From Asterionella formosa (taxonomy: Eukaryota), in NCBI GenBank assembly GCA_002256025.1, contig NKIB01006075.1, positions 62,001-126,000 of the forward strand: a DNA stretch of 64,000 bases, written 5' to 3'. The translations under genes and the position numbers were made by a program. Shown here one piece after another: positions 1,501 through 60,838 of the stretch. The first letter of the stretch is position 1. Every line of letters starts with the position of its first letter. The notes below the pieces were generated by a model, which searched no databases, was not told where the DNA came from, and saw only the letters and a program-made list of their open reading frames with translations.

Positions 1501-2487
1501 TAAAGTGAGCTCATCTACGTAGTTATGACTTGGATTCAAACGAGTCAAATGATTTGAATAAGTAAACTTTGATGTACCAAGCTCTCGTCAACCACACATT
1601 TTACGTTGTTACTCCGTCTATAATGAGCCGGACGATATAAGCTATTTCGGAAGAGCGATAGTTTGAAAATGAATGATAATGGTTAAAAACCTATGATCAT
1701 AAAGTGTGAGATAGACATGGGTCTATCTATGATTGCATGCTTCTCGAAATGCAAACAGCATTTGGAGAATAGTTTGTTTGTTTGTTCAAACAGAACAACC
1801 TAAACTAGCTTGATTAGTAAACTCACAATAAGAATATAGAAACGGAAAGAGAAATGAACGTCGCTTTCTATAGTCTTCTTTGTCTAACAATATAGATCTA
1901 TCTAAAAGGTAATACTTTAACATACCTAGCTAGTAGATCAAAAGAATTTGCATCAATTTTTGTGTGTGTCACAATTTTTTACTCTTAATTATTAAATGCA
2001 AAAGAAAATCTATACTGAGGCCTATGTATCCTATGTACTATTTAGATCTTCAGGTTGCAACCAGCCATACATACGTCGATTACGTTCCAATGTCTGTGCG
2101 TTGTCCGCGGCCATCCTCATAGCCACCAATGAAACCACCATTTTCATTTTGTTGGCTGGCTGATGATAGTGATCGAAACAGCACCTGGTACCAGATCGTC
2201 CCAGCACAAAAATGTGCTGAAGCAATATAATATTATCGATGCTGCTAGCCTATTTCCCCTTGAAATAGTCATAATTCATCGAGGTATTGGTGTAAATATA
2301 ACACAAATATAGGTAATATAAGTACTTGCACATACCGGTAGTATGCTAGATAGAATACGTAGTAGTGGGTGGTACCTGGTGCCAGGTACTAACTGGTAAC
2401 AAAGGTATTGTACAGTAATAGTTCAGGACTGTCACAACAAGAAAGAACAAAACGCCAACAAGGAATCCAACCACCCAACTGTTCAAC

Positions 2488-4110
2488 ATGGTGAAGAAAA
2501 AGGGAAAGTCCAAGCGTGTGACGCTCAAAGACAAGTACAAGATGCAACGTCGAGTGATTGAAACGGGTCGGAAGCGCAAGAAGCAAGTGAAGCGTGATGC
2601 CAAGGATGGAGTGGTCAAGCATGACAAGACCAAGAAGGACCCTGGTATTCCCAATTCTTGGCCCTTTAAACAGGAGCTCTTGAAGGATATTCAGAAAACG
2701 CGGGAACGCGAGCAAGAACAAGAAAACGAGATCAAAGAGAAGCGCAAGGAGGCACTGCGAGCGCTGAAGGAACACCAAGCCAGCGGAGGAACCGCAAGAA
2801 CCATTCAGCAGCTCATGGAACAAGCCAACAAGAGTCGAGCGGACTTTGAAGCAAAGGAATCTGGCGTTGAGGAAGAAGAAGGCACAGAGAAGAGTGAGGG
2901 ATTCAACGATCCAGGACAATCCTCGCGACGAGCTTATCTTCGAGAGCTCAAAAAGGTGATTGACAATTCTGACGTGCTGCTACAAGTATTAGATGCTCGT
3001 GATCCCTTAGGATCGAGAATTAATCCTTCTATTGAGAATGCCATCAAATCACGCTCAGATAAAAAGATGGTTTTGGTTCTCAACAAAATTGATCTTGTCC
3101 CCAAAGAAGTTGTCGGAGAGTGGCTCACTTACCTCAGGCGATCCACACCAGCGATCGCCATCAAAGCGTCTACTGAGAAGAGTATCGCCCAAGGAACTAC
3201 CCAGTCGCTTGACGACATGAATAACACACCTGTTGGAATGGAAGGACTGCTTCAACTATTAAAGAACTACGCTAGGACTGGAGGTACTGGAGGCAAGTCC
3301 AAAACGACCATTGTGGTTGGAATCATTGGATACCCAAATGTTGGGAAATCTTCCATTATCAATGCACTGAAGCGAACCAGAGCCGTCGGTGTATCTCCCA
3401 GACCTGGATTTACCACGTCCATGCAAGAAGTCGTATTGGACCGAAATGTGCGTCTTTTGGACAGCCCTGGAGTCGTATTCAACGATAATTCTGCCATGCT
3501 CGGAAATTGTGTCGATGCTGACTCCGTCGAAGATCCTATTCCAGCTGTGGAAGCATTGCTTGTCAGATGCAATCCAGCCAGTTTGGTCATGACTTACAAC
3601 ATTCCTGCCTTTCCTCCTGGTAATGTTATGATGTTTTTGGCAATGGTGGCCCGGAGTTATGGCCGAGTCTTGAAGGGAGGTATTCCTGACAAGGTCGCTG
3701 CGGCAAGAGCAGTCTTGAGGGACTGGAATTCTGGAAAGATCCCATACTATACACCTGCTCCTAAGAATGTTCCACTAACAACACACAATGACGCGTTGAT
3801 TGTCTCACAGTTTACAAAGGCCTTTGACATTACCAAGTACGATGAAGAGTTGATGAAATCTCTGAAGAACAGTGATGAGATGGACTTTGTAGAGTTAGAT
3901 CCGGAGGTAGAAGTGGAAGGTGAAGAGGAAATGACAGAAAGAACACAAGAAGTCATTGACTTTTTGAATGGAAAGTCTGCTGATGACGAAGAAGACGAGG
4001 ACGATGATGATATGGAGGAAGACGATAGTGATCATGAGGATGCCAAGGCTCCACACATGGCGCGAAAGGCACTCGCCGCTGCTGAGGATTATGATTTTGA
4101 TGACATGTAA
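2488..4110 (+). CDS. GNL3: Nucleolar circularly permuted GTPase (GNL3/nucleostemin/Nug1 family), 540 aa
   Basis: Basic N-terminus with KDPGIPNSWPFK; DARDP, NKID, GYPNVGKSS and DSPG in permuted order; DWNSGKIPYY; acidic tail. Confidence 0.93.
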   Translation: MVKKKGKSKRVTLKDKYKMQRRVIETGRKRKKQVKRDAKDGVVKHDKTKKDPGIPNSWPFKQELLKDIQKTREREQEQENEIKEKRKEALRALKEHQASGGTARTIQQLMEQANKSRADFEAKESGVEEEEGTEKSEGFNDPGQSSRRAYLRELKKVIDNSDVLLQVLDARDPLGSRINPSIENAIKSRSDKKMVLVLNKIDLVPKEVVGEWLTYLRRSTPAIAIKASTEKSIAQGTTQSLDDMNNTPVGMEGLLQLLKNYARTGGTGGKSKTTIVVGIIGYPNVGKSSIINALKRTRAVGVSPRPGFTTSMQEVVLDRNVRLLDSPGVVFNDNSAMLGNCVDADSVEDPIPAVEALLVRCNPASLVMTYNIPAFPPGNVMMFLAMVARSYGRVLKGGIPDKVAAARAVLRDWNSGKIPYYTPAPKNVPLTTHNDALIVSQFTKAFDITKYDEELMKSLKNSDEMDFVELDPEVEVEGEEEMTERTQEVIDFLNGKSADDEEDEDDDDMEEDDSDHEDAKAPHMARKALAAAEDYDFDDM

Positions 4111-4673
4111 TCATTAGGTCTAACATTAGTTGTTGAAACAGGGTGTGGTTTGTAGATTGTTAACATGCAGTGAATTTGACCGGCAAGTCTATTGCTACTT
4201 TACCCAGACCGACCCGAAACGACTTGTTGTCCTTGCCCTTTATTACTTTATTGCCCATCCCGTCCAGTTGGTATCATCAATATCAACCGCGGTATAGCAT
4301 ATGTGTCCTTGATCAAAATATTGGCTCGTCAAGTACGCGCGAAACAAGGAACATTCCACCACAAGACTATTTCGCATAGTTGATACTCCTGCAGTTTTTC
4401 TAGTAATGCATAGTCATTATAACTGACAAATGAACTAAGTAGTGCGCTAAAGCGAAATAAAACTGTGATCATGTTTTCAATTCTTGACTTAATGTGGAAA
4501 TATTTTAAATCTTGAGTCAAGCCAAAACCAGTACACGTGCACCATACCGCGTGATCCTTCCTTTATGCAGTCTGTAAAATCGAGAAGAGTGAGCAAAAAC
4601 ATCAGGACGTGATCAAGAAATTCAATGAAAACTGACTCCCATGATGCTTCGCTGAAGCAAAACGATGAGATGA

Positions 4674-5700
4674 TCATTCCCCTTTATTTCCGGACTTGGT
4701 GTTGCTCACCTGAAAGGTTTCCACTGGTTGCTTAAAGTTGATGACTCTCGCAAACTTCTCTACCGACAAGGATGCCCCGCCCACAAGTGCACCATCAATA
4801 TCTTGTTGAGCCAACAGATCGTCCACAGATTCAGGACTGACACTTCCTCCATACAAGATTCGAGTGTCGTTGGCAATGGTTTCTCCATACATGCGCACTA
4901 GGACACCACGGCACATGGCATGGACCTTTTGAGCAATCTGAGGCGTTGCCACTTTTCCAGTCCCAATCGCCCAGACTGGTTCATAGGCGATTGTAACCTT
5001 GGCCATGTCTTGCGGACTGATACCTGACAAGCCCTTCTTCAGTTGAATTTCACAAACAGCATTTACCAAGTCCTCTTCAAATTCTGCCAAAGTCTCACCA
5101 ATACAAAGAATAACATTCATTCCCTCCTTGAGCATAGTTTTGCACTGAGCGTTGATATACTCATTGCTCTCCTTGTTAATCGTTCGACGTTCCGAATGAC
5201 CAGCCAAGGCCCAGGTGACGCCAATGGATTTCAACATGGGTGGCGATATTTCTCCTGTGAAAGCTCCATTCACCTCTGGATTGACAAACTAAGTTAAGGG
5301 TAAAGTAGGTGCAGAATGAACATTTTACAAAACAGGAAATGTGGTTTAGGCCTGGACGGACTGGCAGCATATATGAGTAATGTGTGAAACTTACCTCGGC
5401 TCCTACAAGGAGCTTTCCATTCACAGCTTGTTGGGCCGCTTCAATAAACGGATACGGAACAAAGAGGGCAACATCACATGGCGAATCGGAAGTGATGGCA
5501 TTAGCAATTCCAGTGGCCAACTCTACCGCTTCTTGGCGTGTCGATGGGTTCAGTTTCCAGTTTCCAGTGATGAATGGTTTCCGTGCCATGAATAGTCTAC
5601 CGGTAGTCATTGAAATTGGCGATGACGGATGCTGCGGCATAAACGCCGAGGCACCAGCACAAGAGAGGGCTACCAGGACTACTGTAGCTGCGATCTTCAT
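4674..5700 (-). CDS. TPI: Plastid-targeted triosephosphate isomerase, 2 exons (5700-5395, 5288-4674), 306 aa
   Basis: Signal peptide ending ASA-F; GNWK, GHSERR, AYEPVWAIGTG, LYGGSV, LVGGASL; 106-bp GT-AG intron 5394-5289 restores the frame. Confidence 0.95.
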
Positions 5701-7321
5701 TGCAATACAATTCCTTGACTTTTTTCTCGTGAGAATGTTCTGTTTTTGTGTTGGATTGAATGGAATACCACCGCGAGGATCAGGTTTGTGTTTTGTGATT
5801 TCCATACATATTTCATATAAAATATTAACATATTTCTGACGTATTCTTTTATCCAATAGATACATGACGACTGATGAGGATGGGAAGTGACGAAGCAGTG
5901 AAACATCGCTATTGACTCGGAACACACACGTACTTGTAGGTCGAATTATTTAGACTGAGGATGCGCAAAGCGGAGAACAAAAATCGCGACCAGTACATGC
6001 ATACACCTTAAAAATACCTACCGGTACATTATACATACAGTACATATAAAAGATTATAGAAAAGGACATGGCATCCTCAGAGCGACCCATCGCCAAGTAC
6101 GACTCACTCGACTTGTACAACATGCACCACGCACATGGTCTGTATAATCCTCCACGGAACTACCAGCTGCCAATTTTTTTCTAGTACCAACAGTTGCAGA
6201 AATTTTGCACCTTGTGTGTCCACAATACTGATTCCAATTCAAAATTTTGCTACATCTGTATATATTTGACATTCCTATTATCCGCCACCCCACCACTTGC
6301 TTGCTCTTCCAAAGTTAATTTGGCTTCAATCTGATTTAGCCAAAGCTATTGAAACCAAATTTATTGTGGAGTTTTCCTTCCCTCAAGCATGTGGCACCAT
6401 TTCTTGCTTGCTTAAACTAGCTATGCATTAATAACCTTCGCTTATACTAGCAATTTATTTATTGTGTTATGACATCACCATTTCAAACCAGCTGCCACCT
6501 CACCCACCTAATATAATGATACTACCAGCATACATGAGAAGGATGAAATTAAAAGTTATTGATCATACTTAAAAATTGTTTGATCTAAGGTTTAAAAATC
6601 TATCTGATCAAACAAATATTCTTATGTATTGAGCTGAACATTTATCTTGTTAAATCAATAGAGTAATAATGAGCTCCATCCTGAGCTTAAACAATATCAC
6701 CAATCAAGCAGAATAATTTATCTGCTGGTCATTGGGAAAAATGTCTTTGATCATTTACTGAAATATGTTTGGTCACACATAATGAAGGTTGTATACATCT
6801 ATGTATGTATTCTTAATGCATTATGCTGTTCATGTTGCATCATGCAGCATGCAATGGGAACCCAGCCATGGCTACAGTTTTGCTGAGTCTGATGCACAGC
6901 ATGTTTGAGACACGAAAAATGGTTACCGGTAATTGCTTTGCCATATGTGAGATATACCGGTATTTGTGAAATGTCTCTCTTTAAAGATTTGATTTTTAAA
7001 AATACAAATAAATTAATTCATTGGTAAAATTAAAGAGTGCACTTAAAAAATACCCTATTTTTATCTTGTACCGGTATACCGTTACTATATCATGAGGATG
7101 CATGATTCCAACGGCACGATATATACTAGTAGGTCGAGTACCTACCGGTATAACAAAACCAGGCACCATCAGATTACATGTCTAGCAACAAACCTACCGA
7201 CAGTACAGCAATATGTATACTCGTATGTAATCCCTTTTACGTCATTGGACGTCCTCCGTTTGTTCATCCAAAAACAGTCGCCTGCAACAGCACCTTGATT
7301 ACTACTCCCCCCGCACCAAGC

Positions 7322-8458: not shown

Positions 8459-8620
8459 GGTACCAGGTACCTGGTACCTGGTACCGTTACACTGAGGAAT
8501 TTATATTACCCCGTACCAGGTACCTGGTACCTCGTGGTACCACATGTATGTTGTTCTCACTATCTTCCTGTATATATATCATTACTGGTACCAGGGTTTG
8601 TACCTGGTACCTGGTACCAT
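8459..8620. repeat. Arrays of the 7-bp unit GGTACCW (overlapping TACCWGGTA palindromes)
   Basis: TACCWGGTA at 8461, 8468, 8475, 8514, 8521, 8601, 8608. Confidence 0.9.
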
Positions 8621-8845: not shown

Positions 8846-9241
8846 ATGGGATTCTCATTATGGAACCTCTTTAAGGTACACACATGCTACTACATTCATG
8901 AACTGTTATTGTTTTTGAAATCGCATTTTGTATCGTCACTTTTGTTCTACCGAATGACTCATCTCGACTCTTTCCTTTTGTTCTCTCTTTCGATTTTCAT
9001 GCATAAATATATTTACAAATAGGCCGGCCTCCTCTTGGTAAATTCTGTAATGATTTTGAATCGACGACGATTTTTGGCCAACTATGGATTAGACAACCCC
9101 AACAATGCTAATTATGGCGATCCAAGTTCACTGAAAGTTCAAGCAATTGGTCTCTTACAAGCTGTCCAATATCTAAAAGTTCCAGTCATTGTTTGCAATG
9201 CTATTACGATTATCTTTGAATTGATTTTGGGAGGAGCGTAA
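8846..9241 (+). CDS. YOS1: Yos1/IER3IP1 family ER-Golgi membrane protein, 2 exons (8846-8875, 9023-9241), 82 aa
   Basis: MGFSLWNLFK spliced to AGLLLVNSVMILNRRRFLA...LLQAVQYLKVPVIVCNAITIIFELILGG; 147-bp GT-AG intron 8876-9022. Confidence 0.88.
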
Positions 9242-10480: not shown

Positions 10481-10880
10481 TTAGGTGTTTATTTTGCATG
10501 TACCTGTACATATATACCGCTTATTACAAGTTGTAAATACGGTATGTGCCCATCGTACCACCTTCGGTTACGACAACGACGACCACCAACCATTTCACAG
10601 AGCAGGTTGTTTACCGTACATGCATAATAGATACATGTAGGTAGGAGTACCAGGTACATCTACCGATATCATACTACCGGTACTGGTTGACAATGATGGC
10701 AAACAAGGTGATCTGTTGATGATTTGTTCTACATAGCCACGCGCATGTAATACAATAACCGGTACATGCGTATCATCAAACCCTCTACACCAGTACTGAA
10801 CATTCATTTTCGTTGGCTATTGTGTTTCATAGATTCTGTTTCTGCCCAAGGAATAACAAACGTAATCAACGAAACGAACA

Positions 10881-21791: not shown

Positions 21792-22918
21792 GACTTCGCT
21801 ATGGAATATCAATATTTTTCGGAGGATGATTCTGGGGTATGCGATCTAGATAGGGACAGCGTTGACAGCGAAGGCACAGCTGATTCAGTTGCTGACTATG
21901 TAGAAGGGAGCAAAAAGATGTGGAAGGAAAAACGATGTCGTCTTGTACTTTGCTTTATCGGTATGTTGTGTGTAAAAAAGTGAGCAATGTCGGCACATTC
22001 TGAGCTTTTTGGCAGTTACATTTTTCATGCTTCTATCTGGTCGTTAGCATATGGAAAGTATTTGGACTCATGAAACATCCGCAAATCACCTTTCCTGTTC
22101 TGTTCTCTTTGCACTTCTCTCCAAACTTGACTCATTATTACTATTCTACCTACTACTTAAAATGCATAGTGTAACTCTCACCATACTTCTACGATCAAAG
22201 GAATGATGGGGCTGACTTCTCGCTCCAGTGCTCAAATGAATTCATGTATGTATTGAAGCAAGATCAAATTTTCTGATGGGGCACCAAAGTTGCAAAATCC
22301 ATTGGTTCTACCGGTATATTACTACAAATTACACGATTTCATACACACATACATACTGCATTATTTTCATGTTCTTCGTATCAAGGTATTTCCTATGTTC
22401 AAATATGTGCATATAAAACATGTTGTTTGACTTTGACAACGAGCGAATCAATATTTTAACCATTTTTGACAGCCGGTAATATACCCGGTACATATTATAC
22501 ATTTACATATATACAAGGTATGAATATTATAAAACTCTATTTAAATAATAATCACTGGAATCCAGGATTACCGAGTCCCAGATTAGCTATAGTTCAGGTG
22601 AACCTGGTAACCTAATATATACATAAGAATACAAACCTGTCACATCATATTCATTGAGTACGTAATACACATTACAGTAGGAACCAGGCATGGCTGCATA
22701 CTGTATCATGCATTCATGATTTTTCATAATACTCTTCCAGCAGAACAAAGGTCGTCAAGAATGTATTTATACTTTTTATTAGACCTACAGGTATTTGTAT
22801 ATATACCACGGCTTGCTTCTTTCTCTATTATATAGACATGAATTAGTATGAGACGCCTGCCATCAATCAGAATAAATTACTTGACTCTCACCACAATCAT
22901 GTCCAACAAGTACATAAA

Positions 22919-28459: not shown

Positions 28460-28956
28460 AGGAGCGCCTTGTCTCAACATGGAGAGCTCCATTTTTCTTA
28501 GTAGGATACGTATAGATAATAATGTAACACAAACACTGAGCCAGATGAGCAAGTGTGGTTTCGGCAACCCCATATGCTCTTTTTCCTTACATATGAGTTG
28601 CTGCCGCCTTAGTGATTGTTGGCACCAATGGCTCCTTATCAGAGCACTGCAACTCTTACCCTAATGTGGTCACATCGCCACGTTGGGCCGCGATTATTGC
28701 TAGCAAATAACTTTGATTTGAAACTAGAGACTACCGGTATTATAGTTGAGGCTGTAAGCATCTGAACTCTCGGTAAGCAAAAAATAAACTAAACTATTCG
28801 TTTATAAAAATAAATTTAACTACCGGTATTCGTTTTTATCCTCGAGGAGCTTTTCTCTAACTAAGTCATCTACGAGAGACCCATAAGTTATACGTTTCCT
28901 AGCATTTCCATGGACAAAAAGAGCAAAAAAAGTAAGTATGCACCGGCAAATCTACA

Positions 28957-29227
28957 CCGTATCGGAAAAAGATATTTCGTCCTGCCTACCGGTACTTCGA
29001 TATTTCCTCCCTCGAACCCTAACCCTTATCTTCAGGTGCTCCCTTATGATACCCGGTATGGGGACGAAATATCATTTTCCTGCATACTGATATATATATT
29101 TATATACCGGTATTCGAAAAGGATATTTCGTCCCCCTAACCCCAGACTATCGGCATTCATTGTACCAGGTTAGCATCTGATGAAGGTAAGGGTTAGGGGG
29201 ACGAAATATCTTCTCCACATACCGGTA
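28957..29227. mobile_element. Pair of ~120-130 bp palindromic micro-MITEs containing CCCTAA/TTAGGG motifs
   Basis: GATATTTCGTCC 28971 / GGACGAAATATC 29062; perfect 21-bp inverted repeat GATATTTCGTCCCCCTAACCC at 29122-29142 / 29190-29210; second unit bounded by TACCGGTA at 29105 and 29220. Confidence 0.75.
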
Positions 29228-29279
29228 TATGTATTATATTTATATATATTTCGCATTGTTAGGCAGAATCTAATTTAAA

Positions 29280-30201: not shown

Positions 30202-31164
30202 GGTGTCGGCTGTTTTCGTTTGATTATAAACATAATTCGCGAGGTTCACATTCAGATCAAAACCCATGCCGTGTTGTTTCATGGCACGCCGACGTAGGCA
30301 ATATTACCTCCATCAAATCTTTCAACATCAACATGGAATCGCATGTTTTGCTTTGAAGATTCCCTGATGGGGGGGGGTGTCTTAGCCATGTATCTATAAT
30401 ATCCAGCTTCGCCCGTCCCTCGCCGTCTTATTTGAGGAGGGTAGTGTTGGAATTCGAGCAGGCGCGCAAGATGGGTGACGAAGGCAAGCTTGGTAACCGG
30501 TATGTGTATAAGGTATAACTATCATGATGTCATCACAATGTGTGAAGTATCATCATCATTGTGTTCTGATGTGTGATATCATCGTCACATCGTCAGCGTC
30601 AGCGTAAGCGGAATGATGCTACAGATACTACCGGAGGTACTTGGACCTTGCACCTGGTACCAGGGTACCATGACGCATCAGTCATTATACTGGTTCCGCG
30701 CGCCAGCCAGTCGACACGTGCATAGAAAAGGCGCGCCACCGACAAAATGGCTGAATTATAGTCTATGTAAGTATATCTATACCGGGATACCGCAACAACC
30801 TCTCCATGCATAATATATATACCGCTTACCTGGTTCCCTGGTACCTGGTGTGCACACCGGAATATCAAATGGTTTTAATCAAAAAGATATTGGCTGAAGT
30901 TAAACGTCAGTACTCCCTACCTGGTACCAGGGACTTGTAAGTGGTATACCGTATGTACCGAAAATTAATTATAACGAGCAATGATTGTTTACCGTTTATC
31001 AATGCAGAATGGCATCATGATGACGAGGAACCCATATTTTTTAAAAATCCTTAAGTGCCTCGCTTACGACATATCCTCGTCCCACCACCCATCAAACATC
31101 GCATCATTTCTATCTACTGGTAAACTACGCTTATCACCGAGCAACAGAGCAGTCAATCACCACG

Positions 31165-32082: not shown

Positions 32083-32921
32083 TGAAGGGCAAGACTTGAA
32101 TTCCATTATAGTGATTGGCATGTTGAATTTACCTTTCGGCAATGTATAAATATTGTACATCTACACTTTATGTACTTCATTATTTGCTCCCTCATTCAAT
32201 CAATCATATAAAATCATATTATCAATTTTGTTGGCATTAATTAACACACAATCATGTATTAGTAGTTGCTATGACAGTTTAAATGTGCGTGGTCGTCCAT
32301 AGATCTATCCTCTACTGCCTGGCAAACTACCGGTATGTACCGGTGGCAAACTACCGGTGGGGGTTTCATATACCGGTAAAGGAAAAAGAATACCGGTAAT
32401 AGCAGTTGATGGCTGACCTACCGGTATGCCGGCTTGTACCCCGGTTTTATCGGTGAACCCTGGTAATGATAAAATAGTAATAAAAATGACAGTAAATAAT
32501 GTATGATATTCATGTAATTTTACGGAGATGAATAAAATAATACCGTGGAATGCTAATGTAGTATGTGGTATACGAGTACCGGTTGTACATTTAGAGTGGC
32601 ATGTTGATGACAATGCGCCGCTGATGATGGCCAACCCAATTTGTTCATGATTGCCATGTCTGATGATATGCATGGTTTTCTTCAAAAAATTCTTATTACT
32701 GTCCTGGCATGATTTAGAATTCAATGAAAAACTGAACTATACCGGCCGCCGCAGGTATGCATATCAGTCCTTGGCTGTATTTCTGTGTCAAACCATTTAT
32801 GCAGTAATAGATATCAAATATGCCATATAACTAACTGCCATCACTATTCCAAGTTGGGGAAATAAATCATTTTGGAAACTGATTCTTTCAAGATTTCAAG
32901 AAAGCTCTCAAGTCCTTCAGA

Positions 32922-38677: not shown

Positions 38678-39249
38678 ATCTGAAATGTTATTAACAAATA
38701 CAAAAATAGCTTTGCTTTGTTGGGGTTAACTCCTTTTTGCTTCGATTTGCGTTGTTTGTTGCAACAAAGAGTAGACTCTATTCAGTCAATTGAGTATACC
38801 TGCGTGTGAATATTCGGGCGAATGCTTTATAACACCATGGTGAGGCCGATTGATGTGTCATGGCTGCCTCCTCGCATCGATATGCATCGTTATACTACCG
38901 GTATTTCTGGAATTTCAATCGTCGTTGCTACGATGCGGCGGCCAGAAAAGTTTCAAAACTTTGCTCCGGGCGGAGAGGAGGGGGTGTGGACGAAGCAAAC
39001 AAAGAAGCAGCCAAAGCGAAATCCGCTATGTACTTACTACCAACAAGTTGCGGTCATTTGGCTTAAATAAACAATTTAATAGAGGATTAAAAAGCTACTA
39101 TTTTAGCTTCGGCACAATGAATGCAAGTTGCAGTCATTTTGCTGAAATAAACATTTTAATCATGGATAAAGTGTTGATAAACCCATTGGCACCAACTGTC
39201 TTTATGTGTTTGAGTTCATCAATACAAAGATAGCTAAACCTTTAGTTTT

Positions 39250-40140: not shown

Positions 40141-41002
40141 AATGAATTCGCCCATCTACACTCACCGGTAGTCTAACGGTTCTTTTTGAGCGATGTGACA
40201 TTTTACTGTACATGCCAATGGTATGATACCTTTTCGGGGGAGCGAGGCTGATGACTTCAATTCTTGTTTACTTATTTTACGCACATCATCATCGATAGTA
40301 GCATGTGTAGCCTGGTACCTGGTACCGGTATGCTGCAACATCATTGGATTGCCACCTACTTCAGTGGGGAGGAGTGCGACGTTGTCCGTACTATACACGA
40401 ATAACTCAAAGCCAATGCAAGGAGGCGGGCCAGCTTCAATGGCTCGCTTTGTCACACACATACATAGGTCTAGTGTACGTAGGTAAACACTCCGAGTGCA
40501 CCGGCATCTGGTACCACCGCAGTTGTAAGTTTGTATGTGAATTGTTATTAGAGAGGGAAGCGATAGCTGTTAAAACAAAGCACAGCTACACTGTATGTAC
40601 CTACTATTACGTCGCACATATAATTTGGCTAACAATGAAAATACATGGTGCTTTATAACACCCCCTCCCCTGCATGAAGCAAACAGCATCGAAAATCCTC
40701 TCCACTTTCTTGTATTAAAATATATCGTACAATTATAACGTTCAAGGGAGTTTGTTTGTCCTCTGCCGATTCGGTCGAAACCCACCCTCTTCTTGCCACA
40801 GTTAGATTCACAACCCCCATTACTTCTTCTCGTTGACCTACAGTATTAAAGCCTTGGTTGATCAGACCTGACGTTCTCATCCATAGACTTGTCTGAATTG
40901 TTCCACTCCAACCTAGGTTTCTCAGCGGCCGGTTGCCGCGTCATTCTGCCTCGTCCAAGCAATCAGATCTGTGCATACTTTGAATAGAACTAACTTGAAA
41001 GC

Positions 41003-44719: not shown

Positions 44720-45042
44720 CAAAGTTGGCGACTTGTACGATTTGGTTGTGTATGTAAAATGTTAGCTATTTGTGGAAATATTCTAGACATTACAAATAAT
44801 TTTTTCTGAATATGATGGTAGAACTCCACTCTGTTCTGGAAAGTTGCCTATTTTCTATGCACCTGTCAGCTCAGTGACCCTAAATAATGGACAAGGGGAG
44901 CAAAACATCATCGTAGCAAGCCCATCAAAAATCGAGTTCAAGAATTAAAAATCTTCTTTTATAAGTCAATAAAAACGTCCACAAATTTACTGATACCGGT
45001 ACTTTTAAGAGTTACTGACCGTTTTCCTTCCTCTGTTGAATA

Positions 45043-45402: not shown

Positions 45403-46294
45403 GATGCTGGGTCGAAATGCGTTTTTTCAATTGGCAAGAGTACCAGTATTACATTCTTGACATGAATGATTGCAGGAATATTCTTTGCATGTTTCTTTAT
45501 TCTCTTATACCGGGGTATGTCAGCCGGACTGACGGAAAGTAGAAATTCAATTTACCGGTATGTGCACATAATGGTCTGTTCGGCTACCGGTATACTCCCT
45601 TTGGTGTTCATTGCTAGTTGCAACCAAGAAACTTTAGGTCACTGCCTTTCATAAAGCGCAAGCTCCGGTAATTATCCACCTACTAACAGCCATTCCTATT
45701 AAAAATGATTCAAAATGAATTGGTGTTTAATAGATATGTTCAATCTCTTCTTCCCTTTAATCGAAAATGATGGACACACCACAGGAAAGAAAAATGACTT
45801 GTACTGTTATCCAAGACAAGGTAAAAAATTGGCTAGCTTTGTCATAAGGGTTGCGAATTCGTGCTCTTGTCAATCCTGCTCTATCTTTTTCAATAGAAGG
45901 CAATTTTTAAAATGACCCTCCAATACAAGGTAATGTGGATAGTTTTCCCGAACTAGGGTTTAATCCAATGCCTGCAAATAGAAAGTGTCATAACGATGAG
46001 ATCCCATGTACCGTACAGTAACTGGCACAGAATTTTCCGCCACATTATAGTTATCCCGTTGTAAGTATGATAAATACATACTATAAGTATAAGATCAGTT
46101 CAAGCATGCTTATAATACACAGCACACCATTTAATTATCAAATCATTATCCTCTGATCTACATTCTTTCATCATATATCTATCTTAACATGAAAGTAAGC
46201 AATTCTAATTGAAATCACTGTTGAAAATAGGCTGAAATGGATTGTAATTATTATGCTATAACTAGAAATGATTTTATTTTTCTATATTCTGTGC

Positions 46295-49200
46295 GGTTAT
46301 GCAATGTTACCCTTTTCTATTGTCTCAATGCTCTTGATGCATGATGCCTCCCACCTCCCATCAAAGCTCTTGATGCAGGTTTTCACTCTAATCCTGAAAC
46401 TCACCCATCTGACTGCCTTCTGCAAATTCCCTTTCATTTTGATCTGATTCTGAATGTGCATATGATATTCCGTTGTATATCCATTTTGTTTTCCTAATCA
46501 TACGAACAATGAGAAGGAATTGCGTTAGTGAGCCATGTTTTGAGTAAAAATCAACGTGGCAGTTCCGTTTTATCATGCTTCACTTACCAGAAATTGATAT
46601 ATTCTTCTGTTAAAATAATGTGTCAGACAAATATCACATAATTACACATCAATAAATCGTTCCACTAATGTCATTTATAACTTGCAACAAATACTGTGTG
46701 CTTAATTAAAATTATCCTGAAAGATAAACATGAATAAGTCAGATATGTTCTAAAAGTTGTGCATTGATCTAAAGAGAGCACTTGCTTACCTTTCTTGTTT
46801 TGTCTACAATGGTGGTTTCCCACCAAATGCAAAATGAGCTTTTGAATCATGTGAAAGGAAGCAATCATGATTTAGCCTTTGTGAGCCCAACAATCGATCA
46901 TCCTGGCATGTGCCCTTGACATAGCTACCATAGCTAGATTCCATTCACTTTCCCATTTTCAATCATTCTAACCAACCAGGTGTATCATAATTGTTTTGTC
47001 GCGTCACTTCAGTTTTCCTCGTCATGTGGCTGATGTGATCTTTCATTTCAGGATTTGTACCAGTATGCATGAAAAGAAACCTTTTAACATGATTTCAAAT
47101 GTATTAGCTATATGCATTTATTTATAAAAATTTGTAAATGTAGAAATATATGGACAGGAGTGGAACATTTGCATTGTTCAAAGACACTCATTGTTTATAT
47201 CGCATATCATGTGTATAGTACTATCATCAGTTTAACTTAGACATAATTCAAATATACACAATGCATGAGAATATCATTGTTTTCTACAACCGGATGAAGT
47301 ACTGTTTTTGAATTTTCTCCACATCAATTTTTGTATCTACAAGTCAGTGATTTAATTAATCAATTCATTTAACGGGATTCATACAGCATTTTTCATATGG
47401 TGCAAATCATATTATAATTTGATCATTAGCTAATTCTCTCATATCAACGACACCATTTATGATATGATCACTATGCTTTGATCGAATGTATAGGATATGC
47501 AAATCTAACTGTATCGATTACAGATCATACTTTCTGGTTAGAAATGATAGCTAGTAAAATTGAATAATGGATAACGATATTTAGTTCCTTTGATCTTACT
47601 TTTAACATCCATATATCCTATTACTTAATATTAATTTTAATCAATCATTCTTTTATGTTAATGTCATGATTTATCATATGATCAATATGCTTTTATGGAA
47701 TGTATAGGATACTATAAGAGTCAAGCTTTACAGATCATGCTTTGTTCTGGTCCTCAGAAATGATGATTGCCAGTGGAATTAGATAACCACCATAAGTATA
47801 CATCCCTTAGGATTTTTTGATACTAGCATGAGTAAGCACATGAAAGGGAGGAGTCATGCATGCACCACCTGTATATAGAATACAGAAATGATCACTGGGC
47901 TACCAAAACAAATTATCCACGAGGTACTCGCCTCCATTCCCTATAGAACCTAAGCAATGCTAGGTTGTTTCTACGAAACGCTGTTATTCATTACCCTCCA
48001 TCTGTTTTACACAAATGCTAGGTTGTTTCTACTTGATACCAATATTGCCTATCCTCCATCTGTTATAGATACTAATGCTAGGTTGTTTCTACATCACCAC
48101 GGTGTTAGCTATTGGTGTTCCAGCGATAGTTTTTTCTATTTCAAAGTTATTGTCACCCACATCATCTCTGTTTCTTCCGATTCTCATTTGTGTTGATTTC
48201 ATGAATCCTTCTGAGAACAAGATTTTTGAACATCAAATCAAAGTGGAAAAGAAGAAGGGAACGCAAAGAGGTCAATGTGCGGGGCCCGCACAACCTCTCC
48301 TTCATTGCTGAGACTGGGTACTCCCTTACTCCTGTATTTCCAAAGAACAGTAATGTCTCCTATTTCCTGGCCAACACTGACACAAAGAAATTTTTAGGGG
48401 GTGCAAGTAGGAGGCACCAGGGAAAAGGAGCAGGAAAATATGTGCATGATGAATAAAGTGACACAACAGATCGATTCGATTTGTTCAGGAGGAAAAGGAT
48501 GATACAAGTTTGACATGACAGCTGTGTCTAAAATATTCAATAAGATTGATGAAATACTTGTAGTGCATACCACGCTATTATGGGTAACTGTCAGGGGTGA
48601 ACTTGCTATTTAAATGGAAAAACAATGCTTCAGGATTCTACAAAATATTACGCAGAAGAAAATGATGTAGTAGTACATTGCGTTTATTTGAATCATGTTA
48701 AATTAAAATGATGACATTACACACAAGATTGGCTATACAACTATAATGAATTTACAAATTTTCAACTGCATATATTTATATTTTACAAATTTTATTTCTA
48801 AATTCATGATGGTTACTATATTTTAAATATCGTCGTTTGCATGCTTACCTCGTACAATCATGGAACCAAAAACATAACAAGGGAAAGTGCAGTGACGAAC
48901 CAACATAAGAAGGAAGCACCTTGTGGATTCTTACTAGGTTTGAATGGCTGTGGGAATTTGAAAGGAATCTATGGCATGTGAAGGACTTACGCCGGGGGGG
49001 GGGGTGATCAATTGATGCTTTAACAGCCCGAAAATGATAGATTTAATAGTAGCTCAATTTGCATTTGGTGGGAAACTTCCGATGTGGGCAAATGACATAG
49101 TATTAGGTACTAGGTTCTTTAGGTTGGAGAACAGAAAATAGAATACTTATACTGACACATGCACATTGCCTCTTTCTGGATAATGGTAATCAAACAGTAT

Positions 49201-49572: not shown

Positions 49573-50239
49573 AATCAATGTTTTTTGTTTCAACATCCTG
49601 GGGCTTGCAACAACGCACTGCACATTCTGGAATTACTCCTCCACACTGGAGCTATAGCTACCAGGTGGTACCCTACTGGTATATGTATCCATGACATATC
49701 GCTCGCTTTGTCATCAACAAAAAGCACTCACTGGGGGGCTCAAGGGAGTGCAAGACTCAGAAAAATGCAAATGTCACCCAAGACCAAAGTCTGAAGTTGC
49801 AATGACGTACTCCATCCTGTTACCGGTATTCGTTAACTCATCTCAGAGCAAGGATGACAACACTATTTCCCGTATGTAGCACCCTATGACCCACTCGGAT
49901 GATTGCTCATGCTGCATCCAGGTCTGAAACAAACAACCTACCGGTACTGGGAAAACTTTTGTAATTAGTATTCCCGATTGCAACAGGTAGTCTAGCTACG
50001 ACAAGGCACGTTTCATCAGATTATTGCTTCATAGTGGTAAAATCCTGGTGATGTATTCCATAGGGAACACCAGCAATCTGTTCTGTGCCGTCTATACCTG
50101 CTTGTGACTCCATGACTGGTCATTTATTTCTTGATTTTGTAGTTGAAATTCATTGAGGGTGCGAATGTAAAATGCATGTACATACCACGAATGATTTCGT
50201 TTCGTGCGAATCGGTCTGCTGGTAGGTGGATATTTCAGA

Positions 50240-53384: not shown

Positions 53385-54801
53385 TATTCTCGATTGTGAT
53401 AGCGGAACTCATGCAAAGTGTGCTGCAGTGGCAAACGGATGGAGTTCGTGCCCTGTGAGAGAGGCTCCTTAATACGATCTGCTGTATGTGTCTTGTCTTC
53501 CCAGAAAGAAGAAAGAAGTAAGGGCGGTTGATGCTGTGTAAATATATGTAATACAGTGTATTCTTTAGTACATGTCGATACTTTTAGAAGATCATTGTCA
53601 GGAATCATTACGAAATGCATTTTTCTTGTCACCAAAAGTGATCACCGGCAGTCGGCCGTATGCATTGCGGAAGAACTGTTCAAATGGTTTTTGAGTACCC
53701 TGGTACCACCAGGTACCAGGTACCAAGGTGGTTCCTGTAACCATGAGTACCGTCAGGTACAGGTAATACCGGTCGGAGCAGTCCTATAGTTCGCATACCC
53801 GCAAGTGATACTACAAGCAAGCTATCTGGTACCGGTGTACCTGGACCCAGTAAGTGCGGCACGCCAACGGAAGTGGTACAGACTCAACAGGTAGGAACAC
53901 TTCCATATTGGCAGAATTGCGGTTATATGCCGTGTTTTGAGTTTATATGCACCACAATCTTCTTTTTCTGAAGAGTGGTTCAGACTGGTGTTGTTGATTG
54001 TTGATCCTTGTCCTGAGAAGTTGTTGGAAAGGCACTTGATAAGGCTTGTCCTTTTGGGAGCAGAGAATGCCTGCTAGCTAGAATTCCAGTATTTTCATTC
54101 TTGCATGATAACTTTTGCACACATTGTAAACATAATCTAGGCTACTGGTAGTCTACTCAAATATAAATGTATAATATATTATTGCAAACCCCCAACTGGA
54201 GGTTCAATTCTATGTTTTAAGTGCCATGGTAAGTTTAATTTTTGCCTGTGAATTGGCAAGGACCATGTGTGCCCTGATGTCACTGCACTCTGTGAAGTAG
54301 CTCTGAGACATGTAGGAGATTCTCTCAACAGCAATGGCTTGTTTGTATTTACTGTTTCATTTGGAAATCAATATAAATAAAAACAAATTATGGTGTTCAA
54401 TTGTCAGTACATATACCATACATACATAAATAGTTTTGTGGATTGACCCCAGGACACATTTAAAATTGATTATTAGCTACTCCTCAATGCAAATAAACAT
54501 TTTCGAGTTCCATAACAACATTTCATCAATATTTCATGATTGCCACTCCATAACATAAAACGGTTTGCAAAGGTAGGTAATACCCTGACTTTTGAGGAGC
54601 GGTAATGACACAAGGGCGTCAATGTGAGCTAGTGAGAACGATGAGGATTTATGAATCATCTGGACAGTCTCTTGACATGTTTCATAAGCCAAATGGATTG
54701 AATACATGATTCAATCGAAACAACATATCATGGTGCAATGCAATCTTTCAGTGCAACTTTGCCGGCATCACACGTTCCTTGTATGCTTTGCATGTTCCGA
54801 C

Positions 54802-55536: not shown

Positions 55537-57462
55537 GATATCTGTCTGATTGACGATGTTGATATTTTGGATGATAATAGATTTGCTTTTGATGATTCAA
55601 TGGGCGCTGGAATCGCAATATAATAGCTCTTGAGATGCGCTGCCTGTAAAAGCTTTCTATCATAAAAACTAAGCAAGATTACAGGAGGTGTTGACTAAAT
55701 ATGCAAGAGGATCTTGTCCTCCGAGACCATCAATGAGCAGTTACTCTAATCATTAAAAATAAATAATTAATGCTCCGGAGTGCGTACCGGTTTTACCATA
55801 ATTACTGGTAGTATTGTGAATTTTTATGATATGCACACCACCCGAAATGTATACCGGTTTACCTACTGCCAGCATGACGCATCATGATAATACTACAGGT
55901 TAATGTGTACAGCTGCGAGCAATATAAAAATGCGTCCTATTGTGTATTAAATTTTTTTTAAATGTGTGCGGCTACCAGTTGCTATGATGATATCATGCCG
56001 CTCTTGTTGTGAACGCCCAGCTCTTCTTTTTGTTTTCCGACTCACATCACAGATATCGTCATGCGTACGTCTGTCAGTCTGTGAAGGATAATAACGAAAA
56101 GGAATTCAGACACATAGGTGCTTATTGTGTGTCTGTGCATCAAATTTCATTTTGTGCGTCACCTTATTATCCAATACAATACCGGTACACAGCACAAACG
56201 ACAAAATTTCTTGTGTGGCCACACAAGAATCAAATAGAATATATTCGATTTTAGTTTTAGACTAACATGACTAGTAGAAATGTTGTGTTGCTGCATTTTA
56301 GTTTATATATGTATGTAGTATAGTTGCTACACTTACCAGTACTTTATTACAAAATTTGTTGTTGCATCCTCTGCTGCTGTAGCCATTGCATTCATGATTG
56401 TTGCTTCATTTCACTGAGTTGCCTTTGCTTGTTGAACAATCCCGTACGAGCTAGCTACCTTCTTGCAGGGACGACGATGATCTCAGTCTTATAATGAATG
56501 ATATGGTCTCGATATTGATGGGGAATTATGCTGGCGAAGTTTGATTGTTTGTTTGTTACTCGAAATCAAAAGCTTTGGTCAATTTATATGACAGAATTGG
56601 AGAACGATGCATTGAAGGCCATACCCAATTCCAAATTTAACCGAAATCATGAAGATAATACCTTTTGATCATAATTCGCCCATTGCGAACATCAATCTGT
56701 ATTTCGAATCTGTTCTTTAAGATGAGATGTGTATCAAAGTGAAGACGGACCAGATGGCGGCGCAGTTTGTTGCTCATGGCCTCAATCATGGGTCTTCCGT
56801 TCTCATTGACTAGCTTTTGGCGAGCACATTTGTATGCTGCAGAGGATTTAGAGCTGCAACATCACTAATCAGGAAGGAGCTTCATTTCATTCAGGAAATA
56901 GTAGCACCACATGAACCTTGAATAGCAGGGGGGTCGAAATAACAATTGTAACTTTGCTTAATAACATTGTACTATCCCATTGTTTTAAGAAATCTCTTTA
57001 TCGGCAACATCAGAGGCACTATATAGGACAGCCTAACCCCATTGCCACACATATAGTACTACTTTCCACAAAGTGACCGCTTTATATATATAGCTTAAAT
57101 ACTATAAGTAGTGTAGCTTGCCCCACACACATGTTCTCGCCACTCCGAAGAAGTGTAAAATATTTATGAGGGTTCCAGAACCATTATTCAATCAATAGCT
57201 AAATTCCAATGTCGTACAGCAACAATGGTTGTCGAAATGAGTCCAATGATGTTGATAAACTTCTCCGTTATTGGGGAGTTTCAAATGATCCCTATTGTTT
57301 TATTAAAATTGTTGGTGCTGGTATTGATACAGAAGAAAAGAGGAACAAGCTTCTGTGCACCATTACGGCCACATTTGAGAAGCATAGCCAAAAATGGGAA
57401 TTTTTCTCCTGACAAGCCGATGGAATTCGTCATACCTGTCAATAGGGAGTGTATCTTAGTAA

Positions 57463-58482: not shown

Positions 58483-58500
58483 TTAAAGGGAGGTTTGGTA

Positions 58501-58974: not shown

Positions 58975-59753
58975 CACTACCGGTGTGTGGTCTGAGAAAC
59001 GAGGACTGCAACTTCGTTAAAAATCCACGCAGTATTGCCGCGATCTTTTCTTTGCGCAAAACGAAGCCTTTCTGGTCAGGCCTATGTACTATGTATACGT
59101 ATGGTTTACAACAACTGCATAAGAGCTCGTCATACTTTACGACGAGAGGGCGGAGGAGCGAGGAAGGAACAAATGAATGTATTGTGTACGACAGCTGCAG
59201 TTCACCCTTTGTATGAATATTTGCTTACCTGTGCTACATACATACCACGGTACCTGGTACCGTATATACGACCGGTGAGATATTCTCACTCAGTTCCGCC
59301 ATACGTAGCTATTTCTTGTACCGGTACTTACAGATACAAGTACCCGCAGGTAGCTTATCACGTATGTAGCCTTTCGTTATCGTTGAGATAACGGTTTCCG
59401 TTTCTTCCTCCGAACACCGAATTATCGCCCGTTGTTTCATCGATCAAACACGCCAGCAACTACTACCGCATTGTTAGGCACGACTTTTGATCCCATCGTC
59501 AACAAGACTGTAGTTCTAGAACTAGCAAACACACATTCATCAAATCAATATCTAGAAGTCAGTCACTCTGTTGCTGCTGGTTAGATAAGATTCCTTGCTT
59601 CTTGATTGCAGTTACATTATTGTGGTCAAATCGTCAAGCGAATTCCATCGTGCTCAACGCTGTTCCGCAACCGTTTCAAACAACCCAAACACAACAGCGC
59701 AACCTTGTTTGCCTGCCCACTGGTCCACGTCGCACAACTAGCCGCTATCGAAT

Positions 59754-60440
59754 ATGAGTTCAAGACCAACATCCGCTGGGGCCAAGCCCCCTCTGTACAA
59801 GATTGTCATGTTGGGCGATTCTGGTGTTGGTAAGACGTCGCTGGTAGCTCGTCTTACGAACCCAGAACGACCACTGAACCATGATATTTCGGCCACCATG
59901 GGCATTGAATTCGACACCCAAATGCTGGACACGCCGCAGGGAAAGGTCAAGGCGCAGATTTGGGATACAGCAGGGCAGGAGAGATTCGCCCGCGTCCTGC
60001 TCCCTACCTACTTTCGGAAGGCGAAGGGAGTCATTCTCGTCTATGACATTACCAATCAAAAGTCCTTTGAGTCCTTGAGTGAACGGTGGATGGCACAATT
60101 GAACGACCATGCTAATTCGGAGGACCTGGCCAAACTGTTGGTGGGGAACAAATCAGATTTGGAAGCAAATCGTGAAGTCAGCGTGGACAAGGCGAAGCAA
60201 TTTTGTGCTGAATTTGGAATGGATATGCTAGAAACATCGGCAAAGTCCGGAGAGAACGTCTTGCAGTCTTTCGAAAAACTGGTGGGAATAGTTCATGACA
60301 GAGCTCTTGTTTCAAACAAGACCAAGGGCGGAATCAAGGGCATGAATGCAGGAGGGCAATCCCAAAATGCTGGTGGCAACACTATTGCATTGAATGCTGA
60401 TCAAGATACTCCGTCTGCGTCAAATACATGTGGATGTTAG
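59754..60440 (+). CDS. Divergent Rab-family small GTPase, 228 aa
   Basis: GDSGVGKTS, GIEF, KAQIWDTAGQERF, VGNKSDL, ETSAK, C-terminal CGC prenylation motif. Confidence 0.93.
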   Translation: MSSRPTSAGAKPPLYKIVMLGDSGVGKTSLVARLTNPERPLNHDISATMGIEFDTQMLDTPQGKVKAQIWDTAGQERFARVLLPTYFRKAKGVILVYDITNQKSFESLSERWMAQLNDHANSEDLAKLLVGNKSDLEANREVSVDKAKQFCAEFGMDMLETSAKSGENVLQSFEKLVGIVHDRALVSNKTKGGIKGMNAGGQSQNAGGNTIALNADQDTPSASNTCGC

Positions 60441-60838
60441 AGTATGCTTATGCTGTAGTGGTGGTTGGTTCATCAAAGTGGCATGAATTGCGGCAACTTT
60501 TTATTCGTTTTTGAGACAGCTGCTAGTGTCATCCGGATTGAATCGAACAGCAGCGCACAGCGAGTTTGTATGAGAAGAACAAATCCTTTTCTTAGTCCTT
60601 ATCGCCGTTTATAGTGCATGGTTTAGTTGACTTGTATTTTTCAAGTGTAGTCGGTGTGACTATACCGGTAGCTCATTATAGATTGTCACTCTCAATTTTT
60701 AAGCAAAGGAAGGATCTTGGTATGAATGTAAAGAAATGAACCATGGCGTGTCCGAAGCACAAGGCGCTGCGCTTTGATATGGAATCCTCATTATAAGTCA
60801 GGACTCCATGGATACCTTCGACTACCAGTAATTCAAAC

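Follow-up and report, generated by a model that had tools for sequence, protein, structure and literature searches.

Promoter motifs of oomycetes are the closest described counterparts of the word considered here. Roy et al. (2013, PMC3597505) list TACCGGTA as M94, a 'high-confidence' promoter motif of Phytophthora infestans, and Seidl et al. (2012, PMC3520976) describe motif-9, an inverted repeat upstream of 1,284 genes in three Phytophthora species that survived a filter for conservation across them. In PMC10031896 motif-9 is written GTACCGGTA, and streme-5, ATACCGGTAT, is placed upstream of 206 genes of Plasmopara halstedii. As far as the available parts of these papers go, the word was discovered through over-representation in promoters together with correlation with expression (PMC3597505, PMC3520976), and it is one among about 100 motifs, linked to infection and hyphal stages; no binding factor was found assigned to it in those parts of the literature. 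A literature search found no published report of TACCGGTA in diatoms.

In the window, by which we mean the whole 64-kb stretch of diatom DNA analysed here, the identical 8-base palindrome is again abundant, again upstream of genes and again in a stramenopile host, but its density is far higher than in oomycetes: about 37 kb of non-coding DNA contain 27 perfect copies, which exceeds one per gene. It also differs from the oomycete motif in being accompanied by two palindromes of a sister type, TACCWGGTA and TGGTACCA. M93, TACATGTA, its partner motif in oomycetes, is not clearly enriched in the window (3 vs 1.2 expected).

Two other binding sites offer further comparisons. In Drosophila, DREF and BEAF-32 bind the DRE, TATCGATA, at housekeeping promoters and domain boundaries. 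Like TACCGGTA, the DRE is an 8-bp TA....TA palindrome present at many promoters and boundaries, and a general rather than pathway-specific factor reads it; its core differs and its host is an animal, and the likeness is an analogy that implies no kinship. The Grainyhead/CP2 site, consensus AACCGGTT, is read by a CP2-domain dimer and shares the palindromic ACCGGT core, but has AA...TT as outer bases where TACCGGTA has TA...TA. The window contains 48 ACCGGT cores, 28 of them flanked by T...A and none by both the A...T flanks of AACCGGTT.

Number and placement of the palindrome

An exact search of the whole window returns 28 perfect copies of TACCGGTA. They are given here singly or in groups, without strand, the first coordinate being the start.

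2333..2340: one copy, upstream of a GNL3/Grn1-type GTPase gene at 148 bp from the ATG; GGTACC on either side, at 2187 and 2371
5598..5605: the sole coding copy, in codons MTTGRL of the transit-peptide part of the presequence of plastid triosephosphate isomerase (TPI)
6019..6026: one copy, 319 bp upstream of the TPI ATG (gene on the minus strand)
6924..7150: four copies (6924, 6955, 7069, 7143), 28-247 bp upstream of an unconfirmed 182-aa ORF
10675..10682: one copy; 199 bp downstream of it begins a 396-aa ORF that matches no family; TACCAGGTA at 10648
22309..22316: a single copy in a divergent spacer, 518 bp from the gene of a 2835-aa repeat protein and 603 bp from a Beclin/Apg6 gene
28732..29227: cluster of five (28732, 28821, 28987, 29105, 29220) between the 3' ends of a FAM210-like gene and an FCP gene, partly enlarged through local duplication
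29102..29230: local inverted repeat whose arms of 41 nt (88% complementary) are separated by 47 nt; TACCGGTA near both outer ends; includes GATATTTCGTCC units and telomere-like CCCTAACCC
32328..32426: four copies (32328, 32371, 32391, 32419) and two of TACCGGTG (32338, 32352), 496-587 bp upstream of the ATG of a SNF2-RING gene and 299-397 bp outside the 5' end of its RNA contig
38896..38903: one copy, 171 bp outside the RNA contig of the glutaminyl cyclase gene and 219 bp upstream of its ATG
40314..40330: composite GGTACCTGGTACCGGTA, two GGTACC and one TACCGGTA (40323), 673 bp upstream of the ATG of a Ysc84-domain gene and about 450 bp outside its RNA contig
44994..45001: one copy between two 3' ends, within the RNA contig (3' UTR) of the RPC11/TFIIS-ribbon gene
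45553..45592: two copies (45553, 45585), 151 and 183 bp upstream of the RPC11/TFIIS-ribbon ATG (gene 45043-45402, minus strand), 142 and 174 bp outside its RNA contig
49821..49946: two copies (49821, 49939), 118 bp apart, in a stretch without a callable gene
56180..56187: one copy, 644 bp upstream of the ATG of a GNAT acetyltransferase gene
59319..59326: one copy, 428 bp upstream of the ATG of a Rab GTPase gene; GGTACC at 59249 and 59256
60663..60670: one copy between two 3' ends, 223 bp past the stop codon of the Rab gene

In 100 dinucleotide-preserving shuffles of the window the word occurs 0.34 times on average and never more than twice, and it is the top over-represented 8-mer of the window (56 on both strands vs 0.7 expected). 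In non-coding DNA the 27 copies compare with between 0.2 (order-1 Markov) and 2.4 (order-3 Markov) expected. Called coding sequence makes up 42% of the window and holds one copy (binomial P = 4e-6), and that one falls in a plastid presequence of the typical signal-plus-transit type, beginning MKIAATVVLVALSCAGASAF. The same exclusion is seen for related words: neither the 16 sites of the variants TACTGGTA and TACCAGTA nor the 15 of TACCWGGTA touch called coding sequence. An earlier note on this DNA had counted 28 copies by eye, had placed only the one at 5598 within a CDS, in the TPI transit peptide, and had proposed a genome-wide comparison with a Markov background; its count and all of its coordinates are exact, the single coding copy stands against the new gene list, and the enrichment holds when run on the non-coding DNA of the window.

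The note had also placed many copies close to gene ends, at a distance of a few hundred bp, and this is borne out: 18 of the 27 non-coding copies are at most 700 bp upstream of a facing ATG, while seven lie solely between two 3' ends and two in a stretch without a callable gene. For four genes with RNA contigs the word is 142-458 bp outside the contig 5' ends, which mark transcript ends only imprecisely. Counted by hand from the motif map, 12 of 19 spacers hold TACCGGTA and 17 hold TACCGGTA or GGTACC; the two spacers with neither are 3'-3' gaps of 99 and 564 bp. By the same kind of count, 3'-3' spacers carry 7 copies in about 4.0 kb (5 of these in one cluster), a density not below that of spacers with a 5' end, where about 14.7 kb hold about 17; the word is therefore better called 'intergenic' than strictly 'promoter'.

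Flanks, clusters and sister palindromes

When the 28 copies are compared, nothing beyond the 8-mer is conserved apart from a bias in the flanking base (A 24, C 16, G 10, T 6 over 56 flanks). Since the copies have no common flanks, TACCGGTA is a free-standing word and not a fragment of a longer repeat. T is disfavoured at position -1, in agreement with the oomycete forms ATACCGGTAT and GTACCGGTA. As in oomycetes, the window shows a palindrome with a preferred non-T flank that is over-represented upstream of start codons.

The copies are strongly clustered. Pairs no more than 50 bp apart number 6 (1.1 expected, P = 0.002); those no more than 125 bp apart number 14 (2.6 expected), a total reached in none of 5000 simulations, and degenerate copies adjoin perfect ones. 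The commonest one-mismatch forms are the CpG-transition variants TACTGGTA and TACCAGTA, with 16 sites, 10 of which are free of GGTACC (about 1.35 expected). Both sister palindromes, which share spacers and half-sites with TACCGGTA, are enriched in the window (TACCWGGTA 15 vs 0.30 expected, TGGTACCA 14 vs 0.96), and so is CTGGTACCAG (5 vs 0.04). Three places are rich in them, again without strand.

8459..8618: sister arrays built of tandem 7-bp GGTACCW units (TACCWGGTA, TGGTACCA); a Yos1-like gene lies downstream at 9023-9238
30656..30928: an FCP and a VTT-domain gene diverge here, and their spacer has four sister motifs of GGTACC type and no perfect TACCGGTA
53702..53836: four GGTACC-type sister motifs and two ACCGGT cores upstream of an MFS transporter gene

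Transposons, mutation and boundaries as possible explanations

Tc1/mariner excision leaves footprints, e.g. TACATGTA, with a TA + 2 + 2 + TA layout. Read as TA-CC-GG-TA, TACCGGTA has this layout too, and the earlier note had accordingly seen in it the footprint of a TA-duplicating DNA transposon with CC...GG ends. The inverted repeat at 29102-29230 can be read as TA + CCGG...CCGG + TA, and three copies have the longer word TACCGGTATTCG in common. However, the search for TA-flanked elements with CC...GG terminal inverted repeats that the same note had proposed found none in the window: all 16 candidate pairs match solely through the motif itself or through GGTACCW arrays, the DNA bounded by paired copies is mutually unrelated, and inverted repeats are absent from the repeat region at 45400-48600. 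Sequencing depth over the bin with most of the 29102-29230 repeat is 24.3 in the deepest run, X3, only about 1.4 times the 16.9 of a long single-copy contig, whereas true repeats of the window reach 300-600 in that run. In two X3 contigs, from another population, whose gap letters are all explained by the differences listed (12 of 52 indels and 40 of 336 substitutions), six copies are without indel. Local paralogues likewise lack a 6-bp indel, as those at 32328 and 32352 differ by point changes (TACCGGTA vs TACCGGTG) and that at 29051 by a 1-bp insertion (TACCCGGTA), and for four perfect copies to arise within 100 bp an element would have had to insert again and again at the same spot and excise precisely each time. 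With neither a CC...GG element nor a 6-bp indel at the six checkable sites, the footprint reading is unsupported, and we consider it very improbable for a word that is so clustered, has no parent element in the window and is a promoter motif in another lineage, where it was kept by the filter across Phytophthora species (PMC3520976, as far as the available part goes).

Two other readings would make the word a product of the DNA itself. Cyanobacterial HIP1 commonly occurs within genes. A HIP1-like mutational system was an alternative in the earlier note; it would write the word through biased mutation, repair or methylation, blind to function, and there are points in its favour: like HIP1, GCGATCGC, as described in the available part of PMC4390886, TACCGGTA is an 8-bp palindrome that recurs very often and has a methylatable core inside (here CCGG with its CpG), the commonest variants are CpG transitions, and CpG observed/expected in non-coding DNA is 0.67. 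HIP1 is prokaryotic, however, and a blind system should also write synonymous and weakly constrained sites; the spread over coding and non-coding DNA alike is not found here. Because TACCGGTA is almost absent from coding sequence, and clusters near 5' ends besides, the fit is poor and we give this origin very little credence. Neutral growth of simple sequence, in which slippage of GGTACC(W) and small local duplications scatter TACC and GGTA words in spacers, would agree with the tandem arrays at 8459-8618, the composite at 40314 and the motif-bearing duplications at 28810/29094 and 32320/32344. Yet most of the 28 copies are solitary with unrelated flanks, and slippage accounts neither for isolated perfect 8-mers in 12 of 19 spacers nor for the same word in oomycete promoters, which leaves it a marginal prospect. 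A protein could also bind the word as a boundary or termination element, of insulator or roadblock type, that divides transcription units, and not as an activator site. The copies solely between 3' ends point this way, among them 44994 between two convergent genes and 29220 just 18 bp past the end of the FCP RNA contig, as do the cluster at 32328-32419, which has the 3' end of a gene on one side and the 5' end of its neighbour on the other, and the presence of TACCGGTA or a sister motif in almost every spacer. Against it, the majority of copies face a 5' end, RNA contigs place transcript ends imprecisely, and the oomycete word, in the available parts of its reports, came from promoter over-representation and expression correlation; we regard a pure boundary role as rather unlikely.

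A candidate site of a dimeric factor

The selected protein-binding site, another alternative of the earlier note, is the best-supported reading, the same 8-mer being a conservation-filtered promoter motif in oomycetes. We put at roughly 0.65 the probability that TACCGGTA is a site for a dimeric sequence-specific protein and would act as an upstream promoter element or as a 'general regulatory factor' site, roles that follow from its position, mostly 100-700 bp upstream of a start codon. Enrichment, exclusion from coding sequence, clustering, position outside RNA contigs and identity with the published oomycete motif carry this reading, and from them we infer protein binding, the dimeric state and an effect on transcription or chromatin opening. 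A symmetric DNA-binding protein would read the word at the DNA level, as a cis element, and would thereby mark the untranscribed spacers between genes of the diatom. Its half-site would be TACC/GGTA, abutting in TACCGGTA, one base apart in TACCWGGTA and everted in TGGTACCA, and these forms share spacers, where they are often stacked as homotypic clusters. Oomycete bZIPs bind abutting 4+4 palindromes, and for this reason a non-canonical bZIP may be named as a candidate reader, by analogy and as one guess only.

A wider proposal is more tentative, and we think it possible but doubtful: TACCGGTA, TACCWGGTA and TGGTACCA might together form the docking code of an ancient stramenopile general regulatory factor, common to oomycetes and diatoms, which in this diatom lineage expanded to almost every intergenic spacer, with more than one perfect site per gene, and which sets promoter opening and the limits of transcription units. 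Diatom cis-regulatory codes are poorly known, and a perfect 8-mer of this frequency would give a very simple handle: it could serve as a bait for purifying the factor, a landmark for annotating promoters and transcription-unit limits, and a building block for synthetic promoters. As the word is also an abundant promoter motif of oomycete plant pathogens with no factor assigned, identifying its reader in either group would answer the question in both. It would also tell whether some of the promoter code is older than the divergence of photosynthetic from non-photosynthetic stramenopiles.

A search of metagenome contigs gave no orthologous locus; the best protein identity there was 83%. In a strain contig with 14 substitutions over 4.7 kb three copies of TACCGGTA are unchanged, a powerless comparison since only about 0.2 changes are expected there. 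Other diatoms have two independent copies in 58.9 kb (0.32 expected, P = 0.04), so the hyper-abundance is not general to diatoms. On a contig of another diatom that carries two copies, one is 360 bp upstream of an ORF's start codon.

Abundance and gene context of the palindrome

The earlier note counted 28 perfect copies of the 8-bp palindrome TACCGGTA (half-site TACC/GGTA), and a pattern search returns exactly those 28, named here by their start coordinates. In 100 dinucleotide-preserving shuffles of the window the mean count is 0.34 and the maximum 2, and under an order-1 model TACCGGTA is the most over-represented 8-mer of the window. The window has 48 ACCGGT cores, 28 of which carry the T...A flanks. 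When all copies are aligned on both strands, there is no information outside the eight bases apart from a bias in the neighbouring base (A 24, C 16, G 10 and T 6 over the 56 flanks of both strands). As flanks are not shared, TACCGGTA is a free-standing word and not a fragment of a dispersed repeat.

Genes of the window
Long ORFs with a family match: GNL3-type GTPase, triosephosphate isomerase (TPI), Beclin/Apg6, chlorophyll-binding protein, SNF2-RING helicase, glutaminyl cyclase, Ysc84-domain protein, MFS transporter, GNAT acetyltransferase, Rab GTPase
9023-9238, + strand, Yos1-like gene, small and easily missed
45043-45402, - strand, RPC11/RPB9-like gene with a TFIIS zinc ribbon, 119 aa, small and easily missed

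Among solved structures, the chlorophyll-binding protein matches fucoxanthin chlorophyll a/c proteins (FCPI, Lhcq5) with E = 1e-81 to 1e-82; we take these structure entries to be from a diatom. Its gene (FCP) has a GT..AG intron of 81 bp at 29542-29622, which is skipped in the RNA contig and across which the frame is open. The N-terminus of TPI, MKIAATVVLVALSCAGASAF..., reads as a signal peptide plus a transit peptide, a presequence of the type used by algae with secondary plastids. Based on the gene content, this presequence and the labels of the runs containing the stretch (freshwater, lake or algae metagenomes), we infer that the window is from the nuclear genome of a diatom-like stramenopile alga living in fresh water. 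It also contains a single ORF of 2835 aa (13338-21845, - strand) with many beta-sandwich repeats of the SdrD_B / SpaA / CarboxypepD_reg type, domains that are better known in bacterial surface proteins.

With genes as callable in this analysis, coding sequence makes up 42% of the window, and a single TACCGGTA copy falls within it (1 of 28, binomial P = 4e-6). This is copy 5598, as had been claimed, and it lies in the TPI presequence codons MTTGRL. Among the 27 non-coding copies, 18 have a facing start codon at most 700 bp downstream, seven lie solely between two 3' ends (five of these are the cluster 28732-29220), and two are in a stretch without a callable gene. Transcripts were taken from a poly-A library of the sample that best contains the stretch, and the ends of RNA contigs only approximate transcript ends.

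Position of TACCGGTA relative to RNA contig 5' ends
32725, SNF2-RING gene, cluster 299-397 bp outside
38725, glutaminyl cyclase gene, one copy 171 bp outside
40781, Ysc84-domain gene, one copy about 450 bp outside
45411, RPC11-like gene, copies 142 and 174 bp outside

Copy 44994 lies within a 3' UTR, and copy 29220 is 18 bp past the 3' end of the FCP RNA contig. By a hand count from the map, 12 of 19 spacers contain TACCGGTA and 17 of 19 contain either TACCGGTA or GGTACC, so that TACCGGTA marks spacers that are not transcribed, for the most part on their promoter side; in a rough hand count its density in 3'-3' spacers is no lower. Since most copies are outside the RNA contigs, a structured RNA is an unlikely reading. 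Scanning the window for Rfam families and tRNAs gave no match.

Sister layouts, variants and clusters

The same half-sites also occur in two other symmetric layouts, here called sister motifs.

Sister motif counts in the window
TACCWGGTA, 15 observed, 0.30 expected
TGGTACCA, 14 observed, 0.96 expected
CTGGTACCAG, 5 observed, 0.04 expected

Part of these are 7-bp tandem GGTACCW arrays at 8459-8618, and GGTACC-based palindromes are also found at 9576, 26063-26905, 30656-30928, 53702-53836 and 62380-63260. Sister motifs occupy the spacers upstream of the Yos1-like gene, of the FCP/VTT pair and of the MFS gene, all of which lack a perfect TACCGGTA, and they adjoin TACCGGTA at 2187/2333/2371, 40314-40330 and 59249-59319. 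The commonest of the 24 one-mismatch variants are the CpG-transition products TACTGGTA (10 copies) and TACCAGTA (6 copies); the others have 0-4 copies each. All 16 are non-coding and 10 of them do not involve GGTACC, and they fit either sites decaying by CpG transition or weaker sites that are tolerated. In the composition of the whole window, the observed/expected ratio of CpG is 0.67 in non-coding versus 0.82 in coding sequence, and TpG+CpA is 1.28 in the non-coding part; these ratios hint that spacer CpGs are to some extent methylated and decaying.

The copies are clustered. Relative to a null in which 27 copies are placed randomly on non-coding TA dinucleotides, there are 6 pairs within 50 bp (1.1 expected, P = 0.002) and 14 within 125 bp (2.6 expected, and 14 reached in 0 of 5000 simulations). 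Imperfect neighbours are found as well: TACCGGTG occurs twice next to the four perfect copies of 32328-32419, and TACCCGGTA at 29051 is an imperfect copy within its cluster. Small local duplications produced some of the cluster members, as in 28810/29094 (87% over 23 nt) and 32320/32344 (the 14-nt repeat GGCAAACTACCGGT); within both duplicates the motif differs by point changes, with no 6-bp block difference. A longer word, TACCGGTATTCG, is common to copies 28821, 29105 and 49821, a pair of local duplicates plus one copy 20 kb distant, and it is also present at 32391 on the other strand with one mismatch.

At 28959-29230, between two convergent genes, GATATTTCGTCC occurs five times, in both orientations, in a local nest that also has telomere-like CCCTAACCC / GGGTTAGGG and an inverted repeat with 41-nt arms (29102-29230); by DNA depth the nest is low-copy. 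Allowing at most one mismatch, GATATTTCGTCC has five copies at 28971-29210, and the Rab gene contains one further match, at 59883, with one mismatch; there are five two-mismatch matches, and the matches outside the cluster fit chance expectation. A MITE was considered and rejected: the copy pairs 115-118 bp apart (28987/29105, 29105/29220 and 49821/49939) have no common internal sequence, and in the window the GATATTTCGTCC unit is confined to this one local cluster.

Other diatoms, another population and oomycete promoters

The FCP protein, used as query for a metagenome scan, matched 16 loci totalling 69,220 bases; at 63-83% identity they belong to other diatom-like organisms, and the orthologous locus is not among them. 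They contain three TACCGGTA, two of which are the same site in contigs identical at 10,295 of 10,296 bases, so that 2 independent copies are found in 58,924 bases versus 0.32 expected (P = 0.04). One of the copies sits 360 bp upstream of the ATG of an ORF, and TACCGGTA is not among the top 8-mers of these loci. It follows that the hyper-abundance belongs to this lineage and not to diatoms generally.

Strains were compared using four runs, all of them in the form of assembled contigs, with 40 of 336 substitutions and 12 of 52 indels listed. In run X3, which is from another population, the 14 substitutions and 16 gap letters of the piece 41496-46188 are all listed and fall outside copies 44994, 45553 and 45585, and a single 10-bp deletion, at none of the copies 28732, 28821 and 28987, accounts for the 10 gap letters of the piece 28501-29020. 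With every gap in these pieces accounted for, there is no indel at the six copies; the comparison is without power for selection. A contig of run X8 over 28604-29732 has 18 gap letters, with positions relative to the copies that are not among the indels listed, and the cluster 32328-32419 is outside all listed DNA pieces.

In full-text searches, TACCGGTA appeared as a motif in oomycete papers only. Roy et al. (2013; PMC3597505) count M94, which is TACCGGTA, and M93, TACATGTA, among the Phytophthora infestans promoter motifs labelled 'high-confidence'. In the study of Seidl et al. (2012; PMC3520976), motif-9 is a novel and abundant inverted repeat found upstream of 1,284 genes; it survived filtering for conservation across Phytophthora species and correlates with expression during infection. 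A 2023 study of Plasmopara halstedii (PMC10031896) found ATACCGGTAT upstream of 206 genes and equated it with Seidl's motif-9, spelled GTACCGGTA. According to a 2024 study that assayed 123 P. infestans factors on protein-binding arrays (PMC11267843), several predicted motifs are still without a linked factor, and abutting 4+4 palindromes, GTAATTAC and GTTCGAAC among them, are bound by oomycete bZIPs; its text contains no CCGG, GGTA or TACC strings, and two of its supplements no TACCGGTA, ACCGGT or CCGGTA. String matches in PMC6032779 and PMC13002877 were discarded as primers, and a 2026 preprint on a diatom Myb network has none of the motif terms sought. No report from diatoms was found, where figure-logo motifs or the supplements of PMC3597505 could hide one. 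This known promoter motif of oomycetes thus appears to be new for a diatom, and at such density.

Possible roles of the palindrome

The best-supported reading is the protein-binding site that the earlier note offered as an alternative, with a probability of about 0.65: TACCGGTA is a putative site that a symmetric DNA-binding protein would bind, and its role would be that of an upstream element of promoters or a general regulatory factor site. It is supported by the oomycete promoter motif (M94/motif-9), which is the same word, conservation-filtered and without an assigned factor; unlike there, the diatom window has more than one perfect copy per gene and two sister layouts. The main rival, the same kind of protein site with a boundary or termination role, is rather unlikely. 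The note itself had favoured the excision footprint of a Tc1/mariner-type element with CC...GG ends, and its sole favouring feature is the single low-copy inverted repeat at 29102-29230 with TACCGGTA near each outer end. No such parent element is present in the window, the checkable copies show no indel polymorphism, four perfect copies within 100 bp are hard to explain by excision, and the word passed the filter in Phytophthora promoters, which leaves this origin very improbable. The HIP1-like writing process, also raised there, fits poorly and has very little to recommend it, as the near-absence of TACCGGTA from coding sequence is hard to reconcile with it. Slippage without function would account for the GGTACCW arrays but leaves the isolated copies unexplained, and we give it hardly any credence. 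As a putative protein site, TACCGGTA, known here from the sequence of one window, offers a clean and testable way into the promoter architecture of diatoms.

Two high-copy repeats of the window have no relation to TACCGGTA. One is a very high-copy dispersed repeat (39044-39081 and 39226 onward, with a partial second copy at 39121-39158) that has a summed contig depth of 619 in run X3 versus about 16 for single-copy sequence and is matched by neither Rfam nor tRNA models. In many contigs 39081 is joined to 39226, and the copy in the window therefore has a 144-bp insert. The other, 45842-47842, has a contig depth of 180-400 versus about 16. It contains direct repeats of 58 bp and 214 bp and no inverted ones, matches no Pfam family, and is probably non-autonomous repeat DNA.
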